This document shows, piece after piece, positions 21,108 to 29,721 of a DNA stretch of 64,000 bases (its first letter is position 1; every line of letters starts with the position of its first letter). The DNA comes from Bdellovibrionales bacterium. GTDB lineage: Bacteria > Bdellovibrionota > Bdellovibrionia > Bdellovibrionales > UBA1609. The position numbers and the translations under genes were made by a program. The stretch lies in contig CBDHDF010000002.1 of assembly GCA_965261545.1 (NCBI GenBank), forward strand, positions 576,001-640,000. The letters run 5' to 3'. Below the pieces are notes generated by a model that was not told the DNA's origin, ran no database searches, and saw nothing but the letters and a program-made list of their open reading frames with translations.

Positions 21108-22947
21108 CCTGAAATCTTCTTCAGTTATCGCTAGGTTGTGGATTAAAGTCTAGTTTTTGATCTGAAGTCGAATATATTGAATGCTTATCCTTTTAAAGTC
21201 TTGACAACGCGTTGCATTCATATCCATAATTGTGGTCATGTCTTCTATATATGAGCAAGAAATAAAGGGCCAAACTTACCTCTATAGGTCCACAAGCTAT
21301 TGGGACAAAGAGAAGAAACAATCTCGTTCTAAAAAGGTTTACCTTGGCAAAAAGGACCCATCAACAGGTAAACTAATTCCTAAATCTCAACCCAGTATTC
21401 CAACATCTTCCCAAGATATTGGTTCTCTCCATTTATTGAAATATATTAGCAAGAGATTAGGTTTGATACAAATACTTAAAAAATCTTTTCCAGATGATTA
21501 TGAACAAATTCTTTATTTATCTTTTTTTAAAATCATTACAAAAGAGCCCTATTACCTTTACCCTTTATGGTGTGAGGCTTCTTATGTTTCAAATGATCAT
21601 AATCTGAATTCAAAATTAATAAGTAAATTTCTATCTATTATTGGTAATGATGAAGATGCTATAGAAAATTTTTTTATGAATTGGATTCAAAGCCATAAGG
21701 ATAGTTCTCAAGCCGTCATGTTCGACATTACTTCTATTTCCTCTTATGGTTCTGAGAATGACTTCTTGGAAAGAGGTTACAATAGAGATGGCGAGAATTT
21801 GGCTCAAACCAATTTAGGTATTTTAAGTCAAAACTTCAAAGTAGATTCCAATATTAAGAGTGCTAGCCTTCCAATAGCTTACAGATTATATCCGGGAAGT
21901 ATTACAGATGTGATAACATTAAGTAATATTATTCTTTTGTCCAAAGAATATAATCTAGATTTAAAACACCTTATTTTGGATAAAGGTTTTTATAGCCAAG
22001 AGAACATTAAAAGTTTACATAAACAGAATTTATCTTATATTATTCCTATGAGTTTTAGCTCCAAGCTACCAAGAGCCCTTATAAGTTCTCTATCAGATCA
22101 TTTATCATCAGCAAAATCAGCTTTTTCTTTTCATGATGAAACTTATTGGTATTGTCAGCAAAGAGTAGAAATAGGGTCAATAAATTGTATGGCTCATATA
22201 TATTTAGATAAGAGAAGGCAAGTGGAACAGGAATCTAATCTTATTAAGAAAATATATGAATTTGAGAATATTTTTTCTCAAAAAGAGTTCAAAAATAAAG
22301 ATGATTGTAATACATACATAAGTGAAACTCTTAAGGGTCAAAGGAAGTTTTTTACTGTTCAAGAAAAAGGCGGTTGTTTTTTTGTAGAAAGAGATTTGGA
22401 GAATATTGAAGAAGAAATTAAGCGAATGGGTTGTATTATTCTTTTAACTGATATTAATACAAATATTTCGAGAAATGATGTATTATCCTTATACAGGAAT
22501 AAAGATAGTATAGAAAAAATATTTTCATCTTTAAAACATGATCTTGGGGAGAGAAGGAACAGAACCCACTCCCTCCAAAATATGAGAGGAAGTTTGTTCA
22601 TTAACTTCATTTCTTTAATTCTAATTTCTTGGATTGATCATGTTATGAAGGAGAAAAAACTTTATAAGAAATTTTCTAAATCTGAGGTTTATAAAATTTT
22701 GAACCAACTCAAGTTTTATAAAATGGCAACGGGTAAGGTCTTTTTAGGAGAGTTATCAGCGAAACAAAAAGTCATTTACTCAGCCTTTAACGTAGATAAG
22801 AGGATAGACTCTACTTTCAAATTTTAAGCCAAGTGTGAATTTATCCACTTGCCTTTTAAGAGCATACACAGACCTATATCTAGGTGTTTTACACTTTGCC
22901 CAAGACTTTAGGCCCGAAGCCTAGCGATAACTGAAGGGGATTTCAGG
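21108..22947 (+). mobile_element. IS1634-family IS (intact)
   Basis: 28-bp IRs CCTGAAATC..TTCAGTTATCGCTAGG; TTTA on both flanks. Confidence 0.9.
21232..22827 (+). CDS. IS1634 transposase
   Basis: Y.Y.STSYWDKEKKQSR..YLGK, FDITS, DKGFYS, YRNKDSIEKIF. Confidence 0.92.
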   Translation: MVMSSIYEQEIKGQTYLYRSTSYWDKEKKQSRSKKVYLGKKDPSTGKLIPKSQPSIPTSSQDIGSLHLLKYISKRLGLIQILKKSFPDDYEQILYLSFFKIITKEPYYLYPLWCEASYVSNDHNLNSKLISKFLSIIGNDEDAIENFFMNWIQSHKDSSQAVMFDITSISSYGSENDFLERGYNRDGENLAQTNLGILSQNFKVDSNIKSASLPIAYRLYPGSITDVITLSNIILLSKEYNLDLKHLILDKGFYSQENIKSLHKQNLSYIIPMSFSSKLPRALISSLSDHLSSAKSAFSFHDETYWYCQQRVEIGSINCMAHIYLDKRRQVEQESNLIKKIYEFENIFSQKEFKNKDDCNTYISETLKGQRKFFTVQEKGGCFFVERDLENIEEEIKRMGCIILLTDINTNISRNDVLSLYRNKDSIEKIFSSLKHDLGERRNRTHSLQNMRGSLFINFISLILISWIDHVMKEKKLYKKFSKSEVYKILNQLKFYKMATGKVFLGELSAKQKVIYSAFNVDKRIDSTFKF

Positions 22948-22953
22948 TTTAAA

Positions 22954-23037
22954 CGGTAAATCGAAAAAGATGGTAATTTTTTGCAACATGGATAGGTATA
23001 TTTTCTTGACATACTTTTTCATAGACGAATGGCATTG
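22954..23037 (-). repeat. Solo left end of IS4 family 3, containing the empty IS1111 target
   Basis: Identical to 23849-23869 joined to 27798-27860. Confidence 0.85.
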
Positions 23038-23415
23038 AGCGTCTCAAGCATACGAAGGCACGATTGGATGCGATGATCACCTTTGGGAGTTAGCCAACCA
23101 AGATGTTCACAAACTGTATAACCCAGTTCACGGCGACTTAAAGAAGGAAATAGCGCCACCGTCTTTTGAATGTCGGCAATTTGCTTGCGCGTCAAGCGTC
23201 TTCCAAAAAAAGTTGTTGAAGGCAATGTCTCTATGCGTGGGTCCATTTGAGTCTCTCCCCTTTGGGAATGGTTCAAATATAATGTGACACAACGATGGGG
23301 TGGACTCAAGTATTTTTTTTCGGAAAAAAAAAAAAGATAAAAGCCCCCTTAACTCAGTATGTTAGAGGGAGTCAGAAAAATGTGGAAAAACCTTCTGCAA
23401 AAACGAATGCCATTG
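23038..23415 (-). mobile_element. Left-end fragment of the DUF4338-IS4 element
   Basis: Near-identical to about 54727..55104. Confidence 0.88.
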
Positions 23416-24292
23416 CCCCCAAGAGTCTTTGAGATGATTGTCGAAAATATTTTTAAAAAAATAAAAGGATATTTTTTGTCTGAAGACACATAAAGAGCTT
23501 TGTGCAAGAGAGGGAAACTCCTCAATAAGGGTTTGAAGTATTTGGGCATTTGATGAGTAACCTGCAAAGGTCATATTGCAGGCGAGTTGAAGAATGAAAA
23601 AGAAAAATATTTTTGGGGTGATTTTCCTGTTTCTTAGAGTTTTATTTTCATTAACGCAGTGATTCTTGTTGAATTCTTTGGGTAAATAAGAAATAATATT
23701 CTTGTGGTTTGTGATGCGAACTTGTCATTTTGTTCGCTCCTTTGTAAATTTAAAATTTTGAAGTCTCCAATGCTCCTTTAAAAATAATGTCACATATTTT
23801 ATTTGCTAAAACAACACCTTTCTTAGGATAAATTCAACCATTCTTAAGCGGTAAATCGAAAAAGATGGTCACCCAAAGTCTCGTTCAAACATACATGCCA
23901 TATGCAAAAAAAATAGTCTTGAGCCTCCGAGTTCCCCAAGAGAACTTCAAGCATTTAAATGTGACTAAAGTACAGAAATCGCTTAGGAACTTGGTTGCCC
24001 TCACACAATTTAGATGTAGACAGCCGATCAAGATGCTTAGCACTCTTTTCCCAGTCCTCAATTATCGTGGCCAGCCGCTCCGCGTCCGTCACTCTAATTG
24101 CCGCTTCGCTAGACGGACTGGGGAGTGCAGCGCATCTTTCACTCTTTCCCTTGCTCGCTGGGGCCTCCTCTCACGGGTGAGAGGCCCCAAACGAGCAAGC
24201 CAAAAACCGATAAGCAGGCGAAAAATTTATTATTACAATGAATGGCAGAGAACAAATTTAGTTACAAAGAACCACCTAAGGAGGAGGAACCT

Positions 24293-25300
24293 ATGAAGTA
24301 CGATCATTATATCGCCGTTGACTGGGCGCAAAGCAACATGGCCATTGCAAGAATGACAGTCAAATCTAATGCCATCAAGGCCACTGATGTGAAAGCTGAT
24401 GTTAGTGAACTCCAAATCTACTTGAAGAGTCTCAAAGGCACAAAAGCTCTCACCATTGAAGAAAGTACGGCTTCACAGTGGCTATATACAGAGTTAAAAG
24501 ATCATGTTGATGAACTCTTGATTTGTGATCCCTGTCGCAATAAATTACTGAGTGAGGGACCCAAGAATGATAAAATTGATGCTCAGAAGCTGGTTCATCT
24601 GTTGCGTTCAGGTCTTTTAAAAAGAGTCTTTCATTCAGGGGATGATTTTATTTATCTTAGAAAAATTATCAGTGGATATGAAGATGTTATCAAAGCAGGA
24701 GTTCGAAGCAAAAACCAGAGATCAGCATTGTTTCGAGCCTCCCATGAAAATGCGAAGAAAAAAACAGAGTTAAAAAGATCAGAAGATATATTCGTACTCC
24801 TTGGATTGGATACGAGCATTGCCTTTTATGAAGAAGAGAAAAAGCGTTATGACGCAGAATTCAAGAGACTGGCCAGAAAACACAAAGAAATTAAACACCT
24901 CCAGGGAATTCCAGGAATTGGACACATCAATGCTGTTAAAATCGTAGCTCGTGTTGTAGACCCTCATCGATTTGAACGCAATTCTTGGTGGAGTTACTGT
25001 GGACTAGTGAAGCTGGCTAGAGTTAGTGGTGGAAAAATTTATGGAAAGAAAAACTCTAGATCTTGTCGGCAAATGAAATGTGTTTTTAAGGTGGCTGCAT
25101 TGACAGTTATTGGTGGGAAAAATGAATTCAATGACTGGTATGAGCAGTTAATTACAGAAAGAAATTATCCACCACACAAAGCCAGGAACGCCATTTCAAG
25201 AAGAATAGCTGCTTTAGCATTAGGAGTTTTGAAGTCTGAAGAAAAATTTAAACCCTACAGGAAATACAAAAATGTAAAATATATTAAAACAGCCTCATAA
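24293..25300 (+). CDS. IS110 DEDD recombinase/transposase
   Basis: AVDW, IEE, KNDKIDA, IPGIG, YCGL..RVSGGK; AGGAGG RBS before ATG 24293. Confidence 0.92.
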   Translation: MKYDHYIAVDWAQSNMAIARMTVKSNAIKATDVKADVSELQIYLKSLKGTKALTIEESTASQWLYTELKDHVDELLICDPCRNKLLSEGPKNDKIDAQKLVHLLRSGLLKRVFHSGDDFIYLRKIISGYEDVIKAGVRSKNQRSALFRASHENAKKKTELKRSEDIFVLLGLDTSIAFYEEEKKRYDAEFKRLARKHKEIKHLQGIPGIGHINAVKIVARVVDPHRFERNSWWSYCGLVKLARVSGGKIYGKKNSRSCRQMKCVFKVAALTVIGGKNEFNDWYEQLITERNYPPHKARNAISRRIAALALGVLKSEEKFKPYRKYKNVKYIKTAS

Positions 25301-25840
25301 AAATCTCAGTAGTTCTTTAAGCATATAGCGAAAAGTAGACAATGACTTTATTATGAGGTGAGGATAGATAGCTCGTGCGCCACGAAGCGCAAATACATCG
25401 GTGGTGAAAGTCCACACGAGGAAGTGCCTCAGCACACCTCGCAGCGAGTCTTGGGCTCAAGGAGGTAACGACATGAGTTAAGCGTAGATAGCAAGAAAGA
25501 AGGGCCGTAAGCCGCAAGGTTGAAGTGATTGAGCCTCGAAAGCATTCCATGTGTGGTGGTCGACACTGTGAGTAAGGTGGAAGACAACATCATTCTGCTC
25601 TCACTGAGGAGGACAGGGTGGCACCGCCGGGGTCTGAGAGCACGGCACTTCTTGAAGATGTATTTGTGAACGTGGGAGACCCTCATAGTTCCCTAGGATG
25701 GGGTATTGCCAAACAAGCCTAAACAGCAAGGATGGTGAAATAGCTGTGGGGGAGTCAGCGAATCCATAGTACTGATGAAGCGAGTAATGATCGTGGAGGG
25801 AAGGGATTCAGGTAATTTTAACTTTGGAAGGGAAACGTAA

Positions 25841-27435
25841 ATGGGAGAGACAAAGTCCAATAACATTACGGAAACGAAACTGAAGAAGGTAGCTCAACTA
25901 TCTGGTAAGAATCCCGAGATGGTTTTCATGGGGCTTATGCCTCACGTGAACAGGGAGTCACTCACCAGATGTTTCCACGAGTTGGATGAGAGGAAGGCCG
26001 TGGGAATAGATCGAGTGACCAAGGAGGAGTATAGGCAAGACCTTGCCAAGAATATAGATAATCTAATTCTTCGCATGAAAACTATGACCTACTGCCCCTC
26101 CCCGGTCAGAGAAGTGCTCATTCCCAAAGACCTCTTTCAACGGCCAGTTCAGGCCACTGGGGATCAGCAACCTAGAGGATAAGATGGTCCAGCGTATGTT
26201 CAGTAAAATTCTCGAAGCCATCTATGAACCGATTTTCCAAGACTGTTCATTTGGATTCCGTCGAGGAGTAGGCTGTCACAAGGAGAAATCCTGCCATCAG
26301 GCAGTGCTACCAGCATCTCTATCATGGGAAAGTGGGCTATATCATTGATTTGGATTTAGAAAATTACTTTGGTTCTATCGACCATAAGAAATTAGTGTCC
26401 ATACTCAAGATGAAAATCACGGATGATCGGATGAAGATCTGAGAATCAAAGTTCAGCAGAAAATATCTGGGTGCTTTCGTTCGTTGATGGGAGCCAAGAC
26501 ATTTTGTAGAAACCGAAGCTTTCTCCTGACTTGCCAGAAAAATGGCATAGAACCTAAAGATGCTAAATATGCTATTTCAAGGAAAACTTCCCTCATTTAT
26601 GACTCGAATTCGCCCACCCCCTGAATAGTTACGATTTGGATTTAGAAAATTACTTTGGTTCTATCTGTCCATACTCAAGATGAAAATCACGGATGAAAGA
26701 TTCATAAGGTATATTGTGAGAATGCTGAAGGCTGGAGTTTTGTCTGATGGGGAGCTCAGGATGACCGATGAGGGTACACCTCAAGGCTCATGTGTCAGCC
26801 CCGTCCTTTCGAATATCTTTGCACACTACGCCTTTGACATTTGGTTCAAAGGTGCAGTCAAGAAGTACACGAGAGGACAAGTGGAAATGTATCGCTACTG
26901 CGATGACATCATATTCTGCTGTGAACTTCAGGAGGATGCTGAGAAGGTTTACAGATCACTCCAAGGACGAACCGAGAGGTTTTCCCTTAAGATGAATGTA
27001 GAGAAAACCAAGCGTATCACCTTTTCTAAAGCCAAGGCTCGACGAGGTGAGAAGCAAGGTACCTTCGACTTCTTAGGTTTCACCTTCTACATAAGTAAAC
27101 GCAGAGGGCGCATACTGCCCAAGATTAAATCCAATGGACGTAGAATAAGGAAGAAGCTACAGGTAGTCAAAGAGTGGTGCCGAGCCAACCGTCACAGAGG
27201 TACATTGTGCGAGCTGTGGGAGAGGTTTTGCAAGAAGCTCAGAGGACACGCCCAGTACTATGCTGTCTCCGATAATTACAAAGGAGTGAAGAATTTCTTT
27301 CACTACGCCATTAGGATTTTCTTCAAATGGATGAACAGACGTAGTCAGCGAAGATCTTTTGATTGGAATAAGTTTAACAGGTTCCTTGCTAACTTTCCTC
27401 CACCAAGGGTTCGCATAGTACACAAGCTGTATTGA
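25841..27435 (+). pseudogene. ltrA: Intron reverse transcriptase/maturase, disrupted
   Basis: KAVGID, VLIPK, GTPQG..SP.LSNI, RYCDD, FDFLGF, RRSQR; frameshifts, IS66 insert and local duplication. Confidence 0.88.
26427..26632 (+). mobile_element. IS66 right-end remnant inside the intron RT
   Basis: KVQQKISGCFRS (TnpC C-terminus) and terminus CCCCCTGAATAGTTAC. Confidence 0.75.
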
Positions 27436-28197
27436 TATAGTTGAGTGAGTAGAGTTATCGTCCGCCTATTGCCTTAATTGGGCACGATGGGTGGGAACGG
27501 GGGTTGGGTCGGGTAACCGGCCCTTCTACCCAATAATCCATTCGATAGCCATAAAGGTTCATTTAAGCGATTAGTACGTCCTCTATTCCTTAACATTTAC
27601 GATGACCCAAATTGAAGATTGTAGGAAGGAGCATTTTCCAACCGGTCTTGAATTAAGAGTGTCCAAATAGACGAATCATAGGAATATGTTGTTTTAGAGA
27701 TGTAAATAAAAAGCCATTAACCATGAAGAAGAAGTGCTAGAAAGAACTTGGTGAGAGATTTCGGAAGGACGGGTGACCGTATGCAGCAAAAGATGGTAAT
27801 TTTTTGCAACATGGATAGGTATATTTTCTTGACATACTTTTTCATAGACGAATGGCATTGATATCTAGTAGTTCTTTTATATTAAGCCATTTATGTTAGC
27901 TGACAATTAAAATGCCCCACCGTCGCCAATGAAAAGTGGCCACTTTTCAGAGGAGGACCTATGGTGATTTTTGGCATTGTCAACCGAGACGCATATAATC
28001 AATTGATATTACTCATAAAAAGGCTCCGAGCTGATAAGAACTCCTTTTGGGTGCAAAATTTCACCTAGTTTGACCCACCCAATTTCACCTAGTTTGACCC
28101 ACCCGATTTCACGAAGTTTGACCCACTGAATTTCACCAAACATTGACCCACTTAGATCTTCATAGATATTCTTTCTGCGCTACGCATTAACGAGGAG

Positions 28198-29721
28198 GTG
28201 TCTATGGGCAAACAAGGTAAGAAAAAAGGAGCAAGAATGATCAACAATATTAAGAAATACATAGAGCTTGGACTCAGTTCGAGACAAATAGCTCGAGCTA
28301 TGGGTGTTAGTCGGAACACTGTGAAGAAGTATGTGAAGGATAGTCCCGGAGGCCCTAACAGCCGCTCAAAGGGGTCGCATGGGCCCTACCAAGCCCCATG
28401 GTCATCCAAGGTGAATTGGACAGATGTTCGCCTCAAGCAAAGCCTAGGGACTCAATTGGCTCATTACTGGGAGCGACATATTCAGTCCGAGATTGACGGT
28501 GTGAGTTATCTTTCTTTTTGGAGAGAGTTTCGTCGGAGGCACCCAAGTATAAAGCTTGATATGCACCAGACATTCACCCCTGGTGAACGGAGTGAGTTTG
28601 ACTATAAGGGAAAAGACTCTTGTTTTGGCTATACAGATGCCAAGACTGGGGAGTTCATCCCATGTCGATTATTTGGAATGATACTTCCATCGAGTCAGTT
28701 TTTCTTTCCATGCGCCACATTAACAGAGCAGCGGGAAGATGTTTTTTCCTCCATAGCTTCTGGTTTTGAGTTTTTTGGTGGTGTGACCGGAACCATTGCT
28801 TTTGATAACGCAAAGGTTCAAGTGACAAGAGCTGATACTTATGACCCCGATATTAACTCTGAGTTTCACCTCTTGTGTGATCACTACAATGTGGCTCCTT
28901 TGGCGATGAGGCCATCTCGCCCCAAAGACAAGAGTCTTATCGAAAATACCCTTGGAGTCTTTTGGCGCTGGTCTTGGCCCCAGATAAGAGAGCGGCAAAT
29001 GTATTCTCTAGCAGACATCAACGCTGAGTTGAAGCATTTGGCAGCTATTTTCAATGATCGTATTCAAAAAAAGTATGGGTTGAGTCGTCGACAGAAGTTT
29101 GAATCTTTTGAGAAGTCAAAATTGAATCCTCTTCCTGAAAGACGCTATGAGAGTGGATTCTGGAAGCATTCCAAGGTTCATCCGGATTGTCACATTCAAT
29201 ATAACTACAATTTTTACTCTGTTCCTTATAAGCATCGCGGCAAGAAGTTAGATATTCGTATTAGCCAACAATGCTTGGAGGTTTATTCAGAATTAGAGCG
29301 GGTGGCGATACATCACATCCCCCAGGGCAGTCGAGGGCGCTACTTTACGACAAAATCTCATCTCCCTGAGTCCCACCGGGCCATTTTAGAGCAAACGCCA
29401 CAAAATGTACTTAAAGAGGCATCAAGCCTTGGAGAAAGCATTCACAAAGTTGCCGAGCGGCTTATCAAAGAGCCTCGCCATCCGCTTATGTATCTTCGTC
29501 GTGTTCAGGGGATACTCAATCTAAGAAAACGGTATTCAACAGCTTCTTTGGAGCAGGCTTGCTCATTTTTTGTAGATGCAGCTTTAAGTGACATTAGGGT
29601 TCGTGGAGTTGAGAAAGTCATTTCAGCAAAAAGTCATCGAAAAGAGGAGCCAAGAGTCTGCCGTCAACCTAATGAAAATTTAAGAGGTTCAGAGCACTGG
29701 GAGAATGCTTGCCGCCACTAA
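28198..29721 (+). CDS. istA: IS21 transposase IstA
   Basis: SSRQIARAMGVSRNTVKKY, PGERSEFDY, FDNAK, PKDKSLIE. Confidence 0.93.
   Translation: MSMGKQGKKKGARMINNIKKYIELGLSSRQIARAMGVSRNTVKKYVKDSPGGPNSRSKGSHGPYQAPWSSKVNWTDVRLKQSLGTQLAHYWERHIQSEIDGVSYLSFWREFRRRHPSIKLDMHQTFTPGERSEFDYKGKDSCFGYTDAKTGEFIPCRLFGMILPSSQFFFPCATLTEQREDVFSSIASGFEFFGGVTGTIAFDNAKVQVTRADTYDPDINSEFHLLCDHYNVAPLAMRPSRPKDKSLIENTLGVFWRWSWPQIRERQMYSLADINAELKHLAAIFNDRIQKKYGLSRRQKFESFEKSKLNPLPERRYESGFWKHSKVHPDCHIQYNYNFYSVPYKHRGKKLDIRISQQCLEVYSELERVAIHHIPQGSRGRYFTTKSHLPESHRAILEQTPQNVLKEASSLGESIHKVAERLIKEPRHPLMYLRRVQGILNLRKRYSTASLEQACSFFVDAALSDIRVRGVEKVISAKSHRKEEPRVCRQPNENLRGSEHWENACRH

Follow-up and report, generated by a model that had tools for sequence, protein, structure and literature searches.

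A sense-oriented group II intron within the predicted 3' guide-RNA gene of a divergent IS1111-type insertion sequence from a Bdellovibrionales bacterium

We analysed a 64,000-nucleotide stretch of DNA from a Bdellovibrionales bacterium (assembly GCA_965261545.1, contig CBDHDF010000002.1, positions 576,001 to 640,000), hereafter the window, in whose coordinates positions are given unless a contig is named. It contains an IS1111-type insertion sequence (IS) whose 3' non-coding end is interrupted by a group II intron. It is probable, in our judgement, that this intron lies in the sense orientation inside the 3' guide-RNA gene of this one IS copy, and that an intact guide would likely be formed from the copy only after splicing. 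It was only in 2024 that guide RNAs were described for IS110/IS1111 elements, and these systems are now being engineered as programmable recombinases. An intron within such a gene would, if this reading is true, be a natural case in which the guide, and not the enzyme, is gated by splicing.

The intron occupies positions 25375-27534 of the + strand (2160 nt) and begins 74 nt downstream of the transposase stop codon (TAA, 25298-25300), which is on the same strand, just as an initial annotation of this DNA had placed it. It starts with GTGCG at 25375 and finishes with CCCAAT at 27534, in agreement with the GUGYG and AY ends of group II introns, and the Rfam family RF02005 (group-II-D1D4-6) matched positions 25407-25642 of the + strand over the full length of the model (positions 1-225 of 225), the score of 135.6 bits exceeding the gathering score of 49. 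The annotation had also proposed a search for intron-free copies, and when the flanks were compared by BLAST with the bacterium's own genome (G000; 4.3 Mb in 11 contigs), three were found (C10:506277/6, C11:785161/0, and C10:515034/3), in which exon 1 is directly joined to exon 2 as GATAGCTC|AATCCATTC (AGCTC|AATCC). Because all three copies read straight through, the intron borders are exact to the base and the insertion is precise.

That the interrupted segment encodes a guide RNA is suggested by comparison with relatives of the element in other genomes (G088, G109, G176, G198, G213, and G235), in which the 3' ends consist of conserved blocks interleaved with short variable segments; in the case of G109, nucleotide homology covers the gene and continues for 253 nt into the 3' end, crossing the intron site. 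When the RNAs were aligned (alignment A1, with the own genome represented by a natural intron-free copy), a long-range closing stem was found by RNAalifold unaided. In this stem 94.2% of the cells are paired, compared with 41-61% in slid controls, seven pairs show double-sided changes, compared with 0-3 in the controls, and the observed value was attained by none of 500 shuffles. With a small inner hairpin added, the number of pairs with double changes rises to 10, and the core helix is 100% paired with five of its seven pairs covarying. Exon 1 contains the 5' strands of the closing stem, P1 (GAGGAT at 25360-25365 and G at 25367, placed by RNAalifold and pair counts) and P1b (GCT, 25371-25373), and exon 2 the 3' strands of P1b and P1 (27573-27575 and 27577-27583, placed by covariation). 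Since the strands of the closing stem fall one in each exon, the intron splits the predicted guide-RNA gene, as the initial annotation had expected; it is preceded by the 5' strand of this stem and followed by the first guide. Exon 1 of the predicted RNA is assigned to 25340-25374 of the + strand, a block that is conserved in G109 and G198, whereas the sequence upstream of it is not. Exon 2, on the same strand, comprises a predicted target-binding loop (27535-27583), recognized by target matches and covariation, in which 27547-27550 pair with 27556-27559 to form the small hairpin, and a predicted donor-binding loop (27584-27688), whose basal stem (TATTCC at 27584-27589 with GGAATA at 27681-27686) recurs in single-sequence folds of 8 of 8 homologues. 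The stem proposed in the initial annotation, TTATG..GGAT with ATCC..CATAA around the splice junction, is indeed present in the minimum-energy fold, but it is not conserved: among the relatives only 65.5% of its cells are paired, and 53% for GGAT/ATCC.

A covariance model built from this alignment (R1) had a single match in the window, at 27498-27688, with 86.3 bits, the first 22 positions of which were forced onto domain D6 of the intron with non-standard pairs. On two intron-free copies the same model gave 138.3 bits, compared with 86.3 on the interrupted copy, and in a search of 109 genomes of the family it found matches in eight. The guide RNA is thus predicted where the annotation had expected it, in the 3' non-coding end. 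That the working guide lies instead in the long and strongly folded left end, and that the 3' end is not a guide at all, is highly improbable. The left end of 391 nt does fold more strongly (-106.6 kcal/mol for 381 nt, compared with -66.4 kcal/mol for the joined 3' end) and contains three matches of 7 nt, one identical to the circle junction (TAGACGG) and two antisense to the target (TCGCTTA and ATGCCAT); such 7-mers, however, are expected by chance, and both target matches would pair with the same strand, unlike those of known guides. Furthermore, R1 matches nothing in the left non-coding end (23851-24241), and the relatives are without the extra segment, the delimited left ends being approximately 155 nt in G109 and 97 nt in G176.

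Within the predicted target loop, the segment CCATTCG (27538-27544, exon 2; the T guide) is complementary over 7 nt to the top strand of the target, CG+AATGG, and the segment TTAAGCGA (27563-27570, exon 2; the B guide) is identical over 8 nt to the top strand of TTAAG+CG+A. The two overlap on the CG core and are unpaired between the strands of the closing stem. At the homologous positions of G176, B and T each match 7-8 of 8 nucleotides in 10 of 10 copies, and the guides of other relatives likewise match their own targets (T in G088, 8 of 8; T in G213, 8 nt; B in G109, 7 nt). The top-strand match (T) is located 5' of the bottom-strand match (B), an order that has been reported for IS1111-type seekRNAs (PMC11187229); the agreement assumes that "top" refers to the strand of the transposase gene. 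In the predicted donor loop, ATTTAC (27595-27600) is complementary over 6 nt to GTAAAT of the left end, and ATAGACG (27667-27673) equals the right end plus the core over 7 nt; the corresponding segments of G176 are ATTTAT, for a left end reading ATAAAT, and ATAGGTG, for its own right end. The evidence for the donor loop is weaker than that for the target loop.

The following course of events is proposed for this copy. The 3' RNA would be the seekRNA or bridge-like guide of the element, with its second, donor-binding loop at 27584-27688, and the transcript covering the transposase gene and the guide would contain the intron. The intron would probably be spliced with a maturase supplied by an intact sister copy on contig C7, since the ribozyme is approximately 98% identical to that of the intact copy, and splicing would restore AGCTC|AATCC exactly as it is read in the intron-free copies. 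In the unspliced RNA, the stem strands would be 2160 nt apart and the guide would probably be inactive.

The reasons for expecting the intron to be competent for splicing are that its ribozyme is nearly identical to that of the sister copy, that D5 and D6 are intact, and that a maturase is available in trans. Domains D1 to D4a are located at approximately 25375-25840 (+ strand, from the RF02005 match), and folding of 27436-27534 (z = -2.78) places D5 at 27461-27495, as a hairpin containing a bulge of 2 nt, and D6 at 27499-27531, where the A at 27528, the 7th nt from the 3' end, is unpaired and bulges out; both are on the + strand. In an Rfam scan at E values up to 5, no match was found over the D5/D6 region (27440-27534). 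The reverse transcriptase (RT)/maturase open reading frame (ORF) at 25841-27435 of the + strand is broken, as the initial annotation stated: compared with the intact copy, it carries 7 additional nt near 26131, 10 additional nt near 26281, and a 270-nt insert at 26396-26665, and what remains matched PF00078 and, in two fragments of 152.7 and 36.8 bits, TIGR04416 (cutoff 300). The sister copy (C7:387778-389650, 1873 nt) contains an intact ORF of 435 amino acids, whose product scored 315.9 bits with TIGR04416, above the cutoff, and could provide the maturase in trans that had been called for; the window intron differs from this copy by 7 mismatches over the first 1052 nt. As a separate observation, the 270-nt insert consists of a repeat of about 186 bp resembling a miniature inverted-repeat transposable element (MITE; 26447-26632), of which the genome holds at least 11 other copies at about 97% identity by BLAST, and of about 84 bp of intron sequence in imperfectly duplicated form.

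Among the intron copies examined (seven 5' ends and twelve 3' ends, including those of the window copy), insertion was at differing sites, although two flanks share ATAGCTC| and two share ATTACTT|. From this we infer that GAGUAA, in a loop at approximately 25571-25578, is the preferred exon-binding sequence: it pairs 6 of 6 with the ATTACTT site and 5 of 6 with the site in the window. Another candidate, GAGTTA at intron positions 101-106, was dropped, as it falls in a stem of the Rfam consensus. The insertion into the IS looks like ectopic retrotransposition at a site partly matching the exon-binding sequence of the intron, a single event and not a partnership.

Several observations weigh against the proposed reading. 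The guide-RNA alignment is small, with eight sequences from seven genomes, two of which are near-identical, and Rfam contains no family matching the intron-free RNA (L006:1100-1700, E up to 10); the scan with bridge and seekRNA models that the initial annotation had suggested likewise gave, with Rfam, no match to a family of this kind in the window or in the intron-free copy. Matches of at least 7 nt to both strands within 40 nt occurred in 86 of 2000 shuffles of the non-coding end, and because chance matches are thus not rare, the guide assignment rests on the homologous positions of the relatives. The donor segments are only 6-7 nt long, the right-end motif is conserved and not covarying, and one position, in G176, covaries. 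The pairing of the exon-binding sequence at the window site is imperfect (5 of 6, one mismatch), and splicing of the window intron may be as poor as that of the intron RmInt1, which ligates less than 1% of its exons in vivo (PMC4238363). Moreover, all four predicted guide segments lie within exon 2, and exon 1 holds scaffold only. A guide wholly on one side of the insertion had been named in advance as an outcome that would speak against the interruption; this is what is found for the guide segments, but not for the closing-stem scaffold, which spans both exons. Function might persist in a transcript of exon 2 alone, or in an unspliced RNA whose parts are kept together by the folded intron, and two intron-free solo guide genes (C10:506123-506298 and C11:785007-785182) could supply the predicted guide in trans. 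A look-up for positions 24900-25900 listed no RNA run containing this stretch.

The intron would then be irrelevant to the mobility of the IS, with the guide coming in trans from the solo genes or from a sufficient exon-2 transcript. Both solo genes are intact by the R1 score of 138.3 bits, for ISEc11 the non-coding region has been reported to be necessary but able to act in trans as well as in cis (PMC11187229), and additional solo copies of the small-RNA gene have been described for ISPpu9 (PMC12288879). However, the solo genes have no evident promoter of their own: a promoter and terminator scan of an intron-free copy revealed nothing above chance, with one promoter-like site compared with 2.0 expected. 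The B guide of the solo genes also differs by one base (TTTAAACGA compared with TTTAAGCGA), and the covariation of the closing stem argues that the stem is needed. We consider it unlikely, although by no means negligibly so, that the intron is without importance for mobility. We infer that formation of a whole guide from the window copy would need splicing, and that splicing probably takes place.

The state of the element population raises another possibility, namely that intron and IS copy are dead debris, nested without consequence, and without useful transcription or splicing. Every copy of this IS in the genome is damaged, each in a different manner. The second full copy has a 2-kb high-copy IS (44 BLAST hits) within the guide hairpin as well as an inversion, the transposase gene of the third copy is broken twice, and that of the fourth copy is truncated. 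In addition, the intron ORF carries three disruptions, including the MITE-like insert, and only two empty targets are left in the genome. In contrast, the transposase ORF of the window copy is intact (352 amino acids) and identical at the protein level to that of the second full copy, no damage is seen in the two IS ends, the two subterminal repeats or any guide segment, and the ribozyme domains are nearly identical to those of an intact intron for which a maturase is present. We regard a mere fossil as rather unlikely, though as an explanation to be taken seriously; the window copy is, on its sequence, the only IS copy whose lesion could be undone at the RNA level.

The initial annotation had further suggested that the intron might hitchhike on an RNA-guided recombinase. 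This found no support in the own genome, where the intron is present in one of the four sequences spanning the insertion site and no second copy of IS plus intron was found. A partnership of this kind, with the IS as a vehicle of the intron or splicing as an evolved gate on transposition, would find parallels in RmInt1, which has been interpreted as limiting the spread of its host ISRm2011-2 (PMC4238363), and in ISEc11, which tolerates cargo (PMC11187229). It is nevertheless very unlikely, considering, besides that single occupied site, that the six other 5' ends and eleven other 3' ends of the intron are at unrelated sites, and that no intron is present in the full-length, high-scoring R1 matches of the relatives or in the 10 copies of G176, with their constant length of 1509 bp; weaker R1 matches in G198 are interrupted by an IS4-like element instead. 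Splicing-gated, RNA-guided transposition as a more general phenomenon, in which target recognition would be conditional on maturase-assisted splicing and the arrangement would recur across bacterial phyla as a switch, is in our opinion quite doubtful.

Finally, the junctions between IS and intron could be chimeric joins made between repeats during assembly. The genome is very rich in repeats, and the public DNA contigs (four runs of one sample; here and below, among the pieces listed) break at repeat borders, including 25374/25375; none of them bridges the 25374|25375 junction, and they contain the intron-free join from other copies. An artefact is, however, extremely improbable, as the junctions are exactly at the canonical ends of the intron and coincide in a single position of the intron-free sequence, and as 7 nt is the only sequence common to this exon and another intron flank. 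At position 27567, within the B guide, the window reads G and the public contigs A only. This polymorphism was considered as a case of covariation within the genome and rejected as weak: the window copy has G with a G-type site and copy C+D has A with an A-type site, but copy B+G has A at a G-type site, and the G is absent from the public contigs.

The boundaries of the IS were determined by comparing the occupied site with two empty sites and with the ends of the 1509-bp relative in G176, which are homologous. The element extends from 23851 to 27850 on the + strand (4000 bp, or 1840 bp without the intron); CG occurs at each of its two junctions, but only a single time in the empty site. The two empty sites, on contig C4, read CATTCTTAAGCG|AATGGCATTG and GGGTTTAAACG|AATGGCATTG. 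All nine right-end junctions in the own genome read ATAGACG|AATGGCATTG and diverge beyond, and the five left junctions read TTAARCG|GTAAATCG, compared with TTAARCG|AATGGCATTG at both empty sites. Insertion is thus specific for site and orientation, with no target duplication beyond the shared core, as in IS1111 elements, and the target is TTAAG-CG-AATGGCATTG. An earlier delimitation to 23870-27796, in which a 10-nt repeat inside the element, AAAAGATGGT (23860-23869 and 27788-27797), was taken for a target duplication, was rejected, since homology with the ends of the relatives extends further outward and the ends read from the empty sites are 23851 and 27850. In the 10 G176 copies examined (each 1509 bp), homology continues past both points; these copies have an internal repeat resembling AAAAGATGGT and, close to the right end, a TTGACA directed outward, as at 27829-27834 in the window. 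The subterminal inverted repeats are 8 bp long (GGTCACCC at 23867-23874 and its inverse GGGTGACC at 27773-27780) and are located 16 and 70 nt inside the IS ends; those of G176 are GGTCTCC and GGAGACC. The right inverted repeat that had been annotated at 27771 is therefore real, but subterminal, and the IS end had been misplaced by 63 nt; likewise, the non-coding 3' end without the intron is 390 nt, and not about 327 nt as first estimated, with the right end at 27850. The remainder of the right end (27689-27850, +) has a homologous counterpart in G176 and terminates with CATAGACG. The left non-coding end (23851-24241, +; 391 nt) is approximately 240-290 nt longer than those of the relatives; the additional length is found in 23875-24241, which contains a GC-rich hairpin at about 24150-24200.

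The target belongs to another mobile element, an IS4-like element designated Z. A copy of Z at G000:C4:3508-4898 (L129:209-1599) is 1391 bp long with 17-bp inverted ends and a PF01609 match, and the two empty sites are both of its inverted-repeat tips. In the window, the inner part of a Z end is found at 23416-23850 on the - strand (97% match to G000:C4:3518-3951), including the left half of the target, TTAAG, plus the CG core (23844-23850), and the last 10 bp of the inverted-repeat tip, AATGGCATTG, which form the right half of the target, follow at 27851-27860 (+) according to the junction comparison. By these sequence comparisons, insertion of the IS1111-type element is directed to a point within the inverted repeats of another IS, at a distance of 10 bp from their tip.

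Several derivatives and neighbours of these elements were also observed. An 86-bp miniature derivative at 22953-23038 consists of about 26 nt of the left IS end and the last 64 nt of the right end, joined via AAAAGATGGT, and occupies the target site GGTTTAAACG|...|AATGGCATTG. At G000:C11:725260-725713, corresponding to window positions 23671-24116, a deletion derivative was found in which the left part of the IS ends at the internal TAGACG (24111-24116) and directly abuts AATGGCATTG, as if TAGACG were a pseudo right end. At G000:C10:533861-534068, a 66-bp right-end unit (AGCAAAAGATGG...CATAGAC) forms a tandem array of three to four copies, which adjoins a truncated guide gene. Z is truncated at 23416 by a repeat of about 380 bp (23039-23419) with roughly 25 copies in the genome, in which an ORF of 96 amino acids (23019-23309, minus strand) has no Pfam match. 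Further mobile elements on either side encode a DDE transposase of 531 amino acids (21232-22827, PF01609) and an IS21-like, IstA-type transposase (28198-29721, PF22483 and HTH domains).

The transposase gene at 24242-25300 (+) encodes an intact protein of 352 amino acids with a DEDD/RuvC-like N-terminal domain and an IS110-type C-terminal domain. PF01548 (31.6 bits, cutoff 29) and PF02371 (40.7 bits, cutoff 21.3) were matched above their cutoffs, whereas NF033542, the model for IS110 family RNA-guided transposases, gave 100.4 bits, under its cutoff of 140; the element is a divergent member of IS110/IS1111 by these domain scores. The motif GL-P----S(t)G was recognized by eye as GLVKLARVSG, with GL and SG correctly spaced and K replacing P. 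In a transposase search of the genome contig set, the best relative had 29% identity, too distant for comparison of the non-coding ends; closer relatives are those in G109 (72%) and in G198, G088, G176, G213, and G235 (46-59%; G176, 51%). Two observations were made on G198. In at least five of its guide genes (L116-L120; G198:C1:172564-173336 and four others), the sequence is interrupted 2 nt away from the point that corresponds to the intron site; what interrupts it is one end of an IS4/IS1634-like element (...CGAAYTTAGG|TTAATTAGAGTG), which occurs in both orientations. This could reflect either a recurrent breakpoint or a co-amplified composite. In addition, many of its transposase copies contain 5-7 in-frame TAG but only 0-1 TGA and one TAA, a bias which suggests a directed mutational process or unusual decoding and not random decay.

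If the proposed reading is correct, the intron-split guide would correspond, for a non-coding gene, to RmInt1 in ISRm2011-2 and would offer a design for a conditional guide that is ready for use, although it is a single event within a decaying population of elements, and its splicing is a prediction. A new, divergent IS1111-type family has also emerged from the comparisons; its 3' RNA has two loops and is supported by covariation, and its targets are readable in several genomes. Group II introns inside IS and 3' seekRNAs of IS1111 elements are known already; in searches of the literature on group II introns together with bridge RNA or IS110, no intron inside a bridge or seekRNA gene was found.

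Several known systems are comparable in part. The bridge RNA of IS621 (Durrant 2024, Hiraizumi 2024) reportedly has two stem-loops, one for the target and one for the donor, with internal loops pairing with opposite strands that flank a core dinucleotide, and is said to be encoded upstream of the gene. The architecture with two loops that is predicted here is similar, and the IS621 transposase (PDB 8wt6 family) was the only PDB match of our transposase; this similarity, however, is weak (E 8.1e-5, C-terminal domain only), and the RNA in the window is located downstream. IS4321 and IS5075 reportedly target the inverted repeats of the Tn21 family, and thus, like the present element, have their target within the inverted repeat of another element.

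ISPpu9 of Pseudomonas putida, an IS110-family element, has the small-RNA gene Ssr9 downstream of tnp and solo copies of it elsewhere (PMC12288879), and so resembles our element in its solo RNA genes but differs in having no intron. The IS1111-family elements with a 3' seekRNA, such as ISEc11, ISPa11, ISKpn4, and ISPst6 (PMC11187229), share with it a DEDD transposase of about 350 amino acids, subterminal inverted repeats, a long non-coding region downstream, and two short segments, overlapping on the core, that match opposite strands of the target, the one for the top strand being located 5' of the other. The present element differs from the known ones in its divergent transposase (NF033542 under the cutoff and relatives at most 72% identical), in its second long non-coding region upstream, a layout seen in 26 of approximately 350 IS in that source, in its target, the inverted repeat of an IS4-like element, and in its guide gene, which is split by an intron and whose guide is predicted. 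The closest parallel to the intron itself is RmInt1 of Sinorhizobium meliloti, which is located in the transposase gene of ISRm2011-2 and on whose splicing the mobility of that IS depends (PMC4238363). Both cases involve a sense-oriented bacterial group II intron within an insertion sequence; however, RmInt1 occupies the transposase coding region of an IS630-type (DDE) element at its regular homing site and in many copies, whereas the intron described here occupies the predicted non-coding guide-RNA gene of a DEDD element, in one copy, at an imperfect site, and with its own RT broken.

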